64,000 nucleotides of DNA from Carboxydocellales bacterium (lineage in GTDB: Bacteria > Bacillota > GCA-003054495 > Carboxydocellales > JAJZTU01). The stretch lies in contig JBAQLS010000025.1 of NCBI GenBank assembly GCA_049302075.1, positions 125,378 through 189,377 of the forward strand, written 5' to 3'. Under the pieces are notes generated by a model. That model was not told where the DNA came from. It was given only the letters and a program-made list of their open reading frames with translations, and did no database searches. The position numbers were made by a program, and so were the translations under genes. Positions 3,201 through 3,482 of the stretch are shown piece after piece; position 1 is the stretch's first letter; every line of letters begins with the position of its first letter.

Positions 3201-3482
3201 GTGGCTATAATGGGGCTGAAATATTTAAAAGATGTAGTAACCTTAAAGTTAAATGAGGACAAATGTGTAGGCTGCGGATTATGCCTACAGGTTTGTCCCC
3301 ATGAGGTATTTTCCTTAAAAGAGGGTAAGGCCTATATTCAAGATAAAGACGGGTGCATGGAATGTGGCGCCTGTGCTAAAAACTGTTTGGTGGGAGCGAT
3401 AGAAGTCCGCTCCGGGGTAGGATGAACTTATGCCATTATTAAAGGCTGGCTCACAGGTAGTGAGCCTCAATGTGATTGTTAA
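3201..3482 (+). CDS. hgcB: Mercury methylation ferredoxin HgcB, read through in-frame UGA 3423-3425 to TAA 3480-3482. The track ORF ends at 3425.
   Basis: It has two CX2CX2CX3C [4Fe-4S] motifs (CVGCGLCLQVCP, CMECGACAKNC) and lies directly after hgcA. The in-frame extension TYAIIKGWLTGSEPQCDC restores a Cys-rich C-terminus. Confidence 0.75.
3448..3466 (+). promoter_or_regulatory. Candidate bacterial SECIS hairpin for the hgcB UGA
   Basis: GGCUCAC-AGGUA-GUGAGCC is a perfect 7-bp stem. The loop contains GGU and starts 30 nt after the UGA. Confidence 0.5.

Follow-up and report, generated by a model that had tools for sequence, protein, structure and literature searches.

Two adjoining genes on the forward strand make up the locus, hgcA, which encodes a corrinoid protein, and hgcB, which encodes a ferredoxin with two [4Fe-4S] motifs; both lie near the beginning of the 64,000 nucleotides of DNA that were analysed (referred to as the window; Table 1). 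In the plain list of open reading frames, hgcB extends from 3201 to 3425 and comprises 74 residues counted from a GTG. As described earlier, the translated frame reads ...AIEVRSGVG up to an in-frame TGA (3423-3425) and then continues through the 18 codons of TYAIIKGWLTGSEPQCDC to a TAA (3480-3482). Translation of hgcB likely begins at ATG 3210 rather than at GTG 3201, since the ATG is preceded by the sequence AGGTGG and since the N-termini of the homologues (MK.xYLK) agree with it. On related contigs, gene callers have also placed the start of hgcB at the matching ATG. Counted from this ATG, the UGA is codon 72, and the product has 71 residues when truncated and 90 when translation continues past the UGA. 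The preliminary description had given 74 residues with the UGA at residue 75, which is correct if counted from GTG 3201 and is likely to be replaced by 71 and 72, respectively.

Table 1. Features of the hgcAB locus, with positions in the window.
Feature	Position	Strand	Remarks
Ribosome-binding site GGAGGG of the extended hgcA	2048-2053	+	Read from the sequence; upstream of ATG 2061
hgcA, corrinoid protein, extended form MIDIEQKQC-U-GPKESLPV...	2061-3200	+	379 codons, in-frame UGA at codon 10
In-frame UGA of hgcA, putative Sec10, motif QCUGP	2088-2090	+	C-UGA also in relatives
Candidate SECIS hairpin of hgcA, UCUGCC-GGU-GGCGGA	2105-2119	+	14 nt after the UGA
Ribosome-binding site AGGTGG of hgcB	3199-3204	+	Overlaps the hgcA stop TAG 3198-3200
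hgcB, two-[4Fe-4S] ferredoxin, UGA read through	3210-3482	+	90 residues, putative Sec72, end ...SEPQCDC
In-frame UGA of hgcB, putative Sec72	3423-3425	+	Corresponds by alignment to the ND132 Cys73 position
Candidate SECIS hairpin of hgcB	3448-3466	+	GGCUCAC 3448-3454, loop AGGUA 3455-3459, GUGAGCC 3460-3466
True hgcB stop TAA	3480-3482	+	Same stop position in the relatives L002 and L116

The assignment to the HgcB family was supported by several features. The protein contains two cluster motifs, CVGCGLCLQVCP and CMECGACAKNC, the second being followed by leucine and not proline, and matches the CxxCxxCxxxCP [4Fe-4S] pattern of HgcB including C(M/I)ECGA. hgcA adjoins directly upstream, which is the neighbourhood expected for a genuine hgcB. 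Against the NCBIfam model NF040864, the read-through product scored 130.6 bits and covered profile positions 1-87 of 93, and the truncated product scored 107.9 bits and covered positions 1-68, both scores exceeding the curated whole-protein cutoff of 99 bits; the tail accordingly adds 23 bits to the HgcB score. In the alignment of full-length homologues, the tail TYAIIKGWLTGSEPQCDC also fits the HgcB consensus AxAIIKGWLTGSEPSCDC.

In full-length homologues that are 62-74% identical to the read-through product, the UGA aligns with cysteine in 21 of 22 sequences and with tryptophan in the remaining one. This latter homologue (P0072) is encoded on a 596-bp ENA contig and reads GVGW at the column, which may reflect a TGA-to-TGG change or an error. 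In addition, 80 hgcB loci from species-representative genomes were located by means of the HgcB alignment; no relative was found when genomes were scanned with the HgcA protein of the window as the single query. The codon in question was readable in 75 of these loci and was TGT in 43, TGC in 31 and TGA in one, and two metagenome relatives likewise have TGA in this column. [quoted passage not shown] Hence, an in-frame UGA faces cysteine in the homologues, as is expected of a selenoprotein gene. The earlier proposal that the UGA occupies the position of the essential cysteine of the Cys73 type was thereby borne out by alignment, with cysteine in 21 of 22 homologues and in 74 of 75 genome loci.

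The preliminary description had further suggested a survey for hgcB genes that are apparently ended by TGA. Searching genomes for the DNA pattern MECGAC-N39-GVG-TGA matched at least 119 genome stretches, so that GVG-TGA occurs at the HgcB site in at least 119 species genomes, and every listed match continues in frame with an HgcB-type tail. The listed matches belong mostly to Desulfobacteraceae, with tails resembling U-AAYIIQVWIKGKENASCGxGGCC, and others to Bacillota, Chloroflexi and Actinomycetota MAGs. They include the cultured strains Desulfocicer vacuolatum DSM 3385, Desulfospira joergensenii DSM 10085, Desulfamplus magnetovallimortis and Clostridium sp. CF012. Closer to the window, two metagenomic relatives (L002, 99% identical, and L001, 85% identical) have kept the TGA and display synonymous changes downstream of it (ATT to ATA), and three additional contigs, obtained from other samples, encode an HgcB protein identical to that of the window. 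In the genome collection, the nearest relatives of this HgcB share 75-77% identity over the N-terminal 71 residues, and, judged by HgcA, the closest genomes are a Bacillota MAG, 70% identical, and a Thermincola MAG, 61% identical. In both gene types, it is mainly the third codon position that varies downstream of the UGA: 94 Desulfobacteraceae-type genes gave entropies of 0.18/0.05/0.75 at the first, second and third position, and 14 Bacillota-type genes gave 0.55/0.26/1.07. The recurrence of the frame in at least 119 genomes and this third-position bias strongly indicate that the hgcB tail is translated. Homology and coding constraint therefore extend past the UGA, as is expected of a selenoprotein gene.

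Downstream of the UGA, the sequence agrees with the earlier observation of a perfect 7-bp hairpin carrying a GGU loop, which begins 30 nt after the UGA. The stem is located within the codons for W-L-T-G-S-E-P, and this conserved peptide imposes part of it. Taken by itself, the hairpin is within the range of chance (fold z-score -1.5; 15 of 200 shuffled sequences reach an equally good fold). Cys-type hgcB genes encoding a similar peptide were therefore used as control set. All 15 of the 15 Bacillota-type UGA genes retain every one of the five inner pairs (CUCAC/GUGAG register), compared to 5 of 64 Cys-type genes (Fisher p = 2.9e-12, a value that overstates the evidence, as the UGA-type genes are kin and come from few clades). 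When only genes encoding exactly LTGSEP were compared, the inner stem was intact in 10 of 10 UGA-type and in 5 of 19 Cys-type genes. In the UGA-type genes the serine codon is always AGU, and the leucine and glutamate codons are chosen such that the stem is kept. At one locus (L084), where the peptide is altered to F-S-G-G-G-P, the stem is retained through compensatory changes (UUCUCC/GGAGGA). In an alignment of 15 sequences, 91% of the cells pair, compared to 11-48% in controls with slid 3' partners; in two stem pairs, both sides have changed in a compensatory manner. The significance of the hairpin is thus derived from the contrast with the Cys-type genes and not from its folding energy, and the suggested likeness to a SECIS element gained support from this contrast. 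Selenoprotein genes are expected to contain, soon after the UGA, a stem-loop whose apical loop includes a G, which makes the hairpin a candidate SECIS. At gathering thresholds, Rfam matched no RNA family anywhere in the 64-kb window. UGA-type hgcB genes of the Desulfobacteraceae possess another conserved hairpin, UUAUCCA-GGUC-UGGAUAA (loci L083-L201, e.g., L083 1209-1270), in which 10 nt separate the UGA from the stem, compared to 22 nt in the Bacillota-type genes. As the spacing differs and the GGU stays, the hairpin appears to have moved between clades while a GGU-containing loop was kept.

A second in-frame UGA occurs in hgcA. The plain call of this gene extends from GTG 2112 to 3200 (362 residues); its product scores 422 bits against the NCBIfam HgcA model NF040863 (cutoff 275) and contains the cap-helix motif NVWCAAGK, in agreement with the pattern N(V/I)WCA(A/G)GK. 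An upstream ATG at 2061, followed by C-UGA-GPK, is in frame with the called gene. The same C-UGA-GPK is present in the relatives L181 and L116, and C-UGA followed by other residues in L084, L123 and L185; in L181, L116 and L084, a GGAGG-type site and an ATG are located upstream of the C-UGA. At the same offset, these three loci also share a stem (G)UCUGCC/GGCAGA(C). The fold of the hgcA hairpin is not significant when the window sequence is considered alone (z = +0.18). The upstream start and the C-UGA-G-P that characterize CU-type HgcA are present, with Q as first residue, so that the strict PCUGP is unmatched. Judged from these sequence features, hgcA looks like a selenoprotein gene too. A crude screen of the N-terminal regions of about 154 hgcA genes (loci L003-L201) identified 11 with Cys, an in-frame TGA and an upstream start and 51 with CC in the N-terminal region, the rest having neither CC nor C-TGA. 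Given the published view that selenoproteins make up the majority of HgcA, more than 11 C-TGA genes would have been expected.

Within the window, UGA otherwise acts as an ordinary stop codon. It ends 8 of 56 long open reading frames, the genes are intact under code 11, and a scan for other long reading frames broken by a single TGA identified hgcA as the sole credible case in the window. The genetic code is therefore taken to be standard, given these regular UGA stops and the fact that no further interrupted gene was found. ARAGORN detected no tRNA in the 64-kb window, and one tRNA-Lys and no tRNA-Sec on 26 related hgcAB loci. selA, selB and selD were not among the window ORFs checked, which included NCBIfam scans of ten unassigned ones. 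The hgcAB genes have as neighbours, at 22-1779, the sequence for the C-terminal portion of an RCC1-repeat/SLH surface protein of very large size (about 1580 residues on related contigs) and, on the opposite strand at 3527-4060, a gene for a triple-LysM SafA-like spore-coat protein; these flanking genes suggest a spore-forming Bacillota host. Further downstream, two adjoining genes (29325-31323) weakly resemble those for the PtuA ATPase (204 bits, cutoff 500) and the PtuB HNH nuclease (28 bits) of Septu/retron-type anti-phage systems. Two unrelated genes end in ...GC-TGA (23898-23925 and 28927-28955) and are followed by the similar in-frame sequences NSPPSV and NSPSSF, which may represent a short sequence repeated at the ends of these genes.

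The column occupied by either Cys or UGA, the conserved and codon-periodic tail and the hairpin specific for UGA-type genes make it very probable, as far as sequence comparison can tell, that the hgcB UGA at the Cys73 position is decoded as selenocysteine. The second C-UGA in the same operon, in hgcA, and the published Sec-HgcB further argue for this reading. The hgcAB operon (2061-3482) would accordingly encode two selenoproteins. The hairpin at 3448-3466 would recruit SelB with Sec-tRNA(Sec) to the UGA of hgcB, and the product would be a ferredoxin of 90 residues with Sec72 in the GVG[C/U] motif and the C-terminal end ...SEPQCDC. Selenocysteine insertion, the machinery for it in this genome and the chemical role of selenium are what we infer from these data. 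A selenolate at position 72 may have a higher affinity for Hg(II) or CH3Hg+ and would be deprotonated at neutral pH; selenocysteine would then provide a softer and fully ionised ligand for mercury.

If the UGA instead served as a real stop, the gene would yield an HgcB of 71 residues with both [4Fe-4S] motifs, lacking the Cys73 equivalent and the tail, and would represent either a decaying gene or a ferredoxin-only variant. Gene callers annotate this 71-residue form, which still exceeds the NF040864 cutoff (107.9 versus 99 bits), and no Sec machinery was found in the window. However, the 18 codons after the UGA fit the HgcB tail, stop where the relatives stop and vary with a third-position bias, the same arrangement recurs in at least 119 species, and the hairpin is maintained specifically in UGA-type genes. 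Moreover, the C73A substitution abolishes methylation in ND132, so that inactivity would be expected of a protein without the tail, whereas the gene has been conserved. We consider termination at this codon very unlikely.

A full-length HgcB without selenocysteine would result if the UGA were read through by a near-cognate tRNA inserting Trp or Cys, or by a suppressor tRNA. This would leave the conserved GGU-loop hairpin at SECIS distance without a role, and it would have to be reconciled with UGA being a normal stop for the other genes of the window and with a C-UGA motif in hgcA that is typical of selenoproteins. Bacteria do show low-level read-through of UGA, and Trp (TGG) occurs at the column in P0072, but the column is otherwise strictly Cys; selenium-free read-through thus appears highly improbable. 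The TGA is also only a single base away from the cysteine codons TGC and TGT, as would be expected of a sequencing or assembly error. Such an error would have had to arise on five contigs (L001, L002, L202, L203 and L204) that come from different samples and were assembled independently, and TGA is found at the site in more than 100 other genomes, which renders this explanation practically negligible.

With selenocysteine as the preferred reading of the UGA, the C-terminal end of the protein deserves separate consideration. The preliminary description had proposed that read-through restores a C-terminal C-x-C. Such a motif is present in the terminal ...CDC; as a counterpart of Cys94/Cys95 of ND132 it did not hold, as C88-x-C90 corresponds in the alignment to the internal C[DG]C that in most HgcB is located upstream of a final ...GCC. 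The final Cys-Cys pair is thus absent from the window HgcB, which ends in ...SEPQCDC. The pair is lacking in 13 of 17 non-Desulfobacterial Sec-type HgcB, the window included, versus 13 of 76 of the Cys type (Fisher p 4.9e-6, with kinship ignored; about six clades account for the 13 Sec-type cases), so that the pair is common in the family without being universal. Besides the window, the Sec-type loci without Cys-Cys are L084, L097, L109, L116, L118, L123, L126, L131, L137, L173, L181 and L185. A tentative and rather doubtful interpretation is that in the Bacillota-type proteins Sec72 of HgcB and the CU of HgcA replace the flexible Cys-Cys mercury shuttle, which would result in a short-tailed, selenium-dependent hand-over of Hg(II)/CH3Hg+. 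The link between selenocysteine and loss of the Cys-Cys pair is lineage-bound at best, since the Sec-type HgcB of Desulfobacteraceae have kept the pair in 96 of 101 cases and lack it in 5.

HgcAB makes neurotoxic methylmercury. As residue 73 of HgcB is essential, a selenolate at this position bears on the handling of Hg(II) and CH3Hg+. In metagenome catalogues, the hgcB genes of close relatives are stored as truncated ferredoxins of 71 residues under unrelated names, and surveys of hgcB that require the Cys73 motif would miss or misjudge UGA-type genes. Motif-based screens for hgcB should therefore accept U at the Cys73 position, the more so as the at least 119 species-level genomes with the UGA form include cultured strains. 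The value of the present case is mainly practical, as Sec-HgcB is already represented in the literature and in NCBI annotation models.

Sec-HgcB with selenocysteine at residue 73 has been described for 17 of 266 sequences (Haft & Gwadz, bioRxiv 10.1101/2022.07.06.499078; J Bacteriol 205:e00259-22, 2023). The same authors reported an N-terminal extension of HgcA that had formerly been missed and that in many of these proteins contains a CU motif (PCUGP) (Haft & Gwadz, bioRxiv 10.1101/2022.07.06.499078). A 2026 review of prokaryotic selenoproteins lists both HgcB (NF040864, GVGU) and HgcA (NF040863, CU), and a 2024 PNAS study on purified HgcAB states that homologues "may be selenoproteins". A literature search found no experimental report of selenium in any HgcB. 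The authors of the preliminary description had not been aware of a described Sec-containing HgcB; the 2023 publication and the GVGU motif of NF040864 already cover this form, and the HgcB of the window is a further case of the Sec-HgcB described by Haft & Gwadz (2023) and not a discovery.

Compared to the published Sec-HgcB (NF040864, GVGU, example WP_250697400.1), the window protein belongs to the same family by score, has the same GVG-U site at about residue 73 and is encoded adjacent to hgcA. However, nearly every published family member ends in Cys-Cys, whereas the window HgcB ends in ...CDC. The hgcA of the window likewise resembles the CU-type HgcA of Haft & Gwadz (NF040863) in that an upstream ATG, a ribosome-binding site and C-UGA-G-P precede the earlier-called start. 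In the published CU-type HgcA, the motif PCUGP is invariant in 20 sequences, in contrast to QCUGP in the window and SCUGP, YCUGP and ACUSP in its relatives.

The hgcB hairpin shares with the SECIS elements of Gram-positive bacteria the location within the coding sequence soon after the UGA, the 7-bp stem and the GGU apical loop, and differs from them in lacking an Rfam match and in a position that shifts between clades. A stem-loop of a similar kind has been reported for SaoC in the preprint of Haft & Gwadz, in which SECIS elements were inspected by hand because the prediction server had failed (bioRxiv 10.1101/2022.07.06.499078).

The best-studied Cys-type counterpart is HgcB of ND132 (Desulfovibrio desulfuricans / Pseudodesulfovibrio mercurii). 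Here, the strictly conserved Cys73 is found where the C-terminal helix begins, and the C73A substitution abolishes methylation; Cys94 and Cys95 are positioned on a disordered tail, and at least one of them is needed for full activity (Cooper et al. 2020). It has been proposed that the tail cysteines fetch Hg(II) and hand CH3Hg+ to Cys73 (Cooper et al. 2020). The window HgcB has in common with this protein the two CxxCxxCxxxCP motifs and a key residue about 12 positions after the second of them. In ND132 HgcB this residue is Cys73 and is complemented by Cys94/Cys95 on the flexible tail, whereas the window HgcB would carry the putative Sec72 at this position together with only C88-x-C90.
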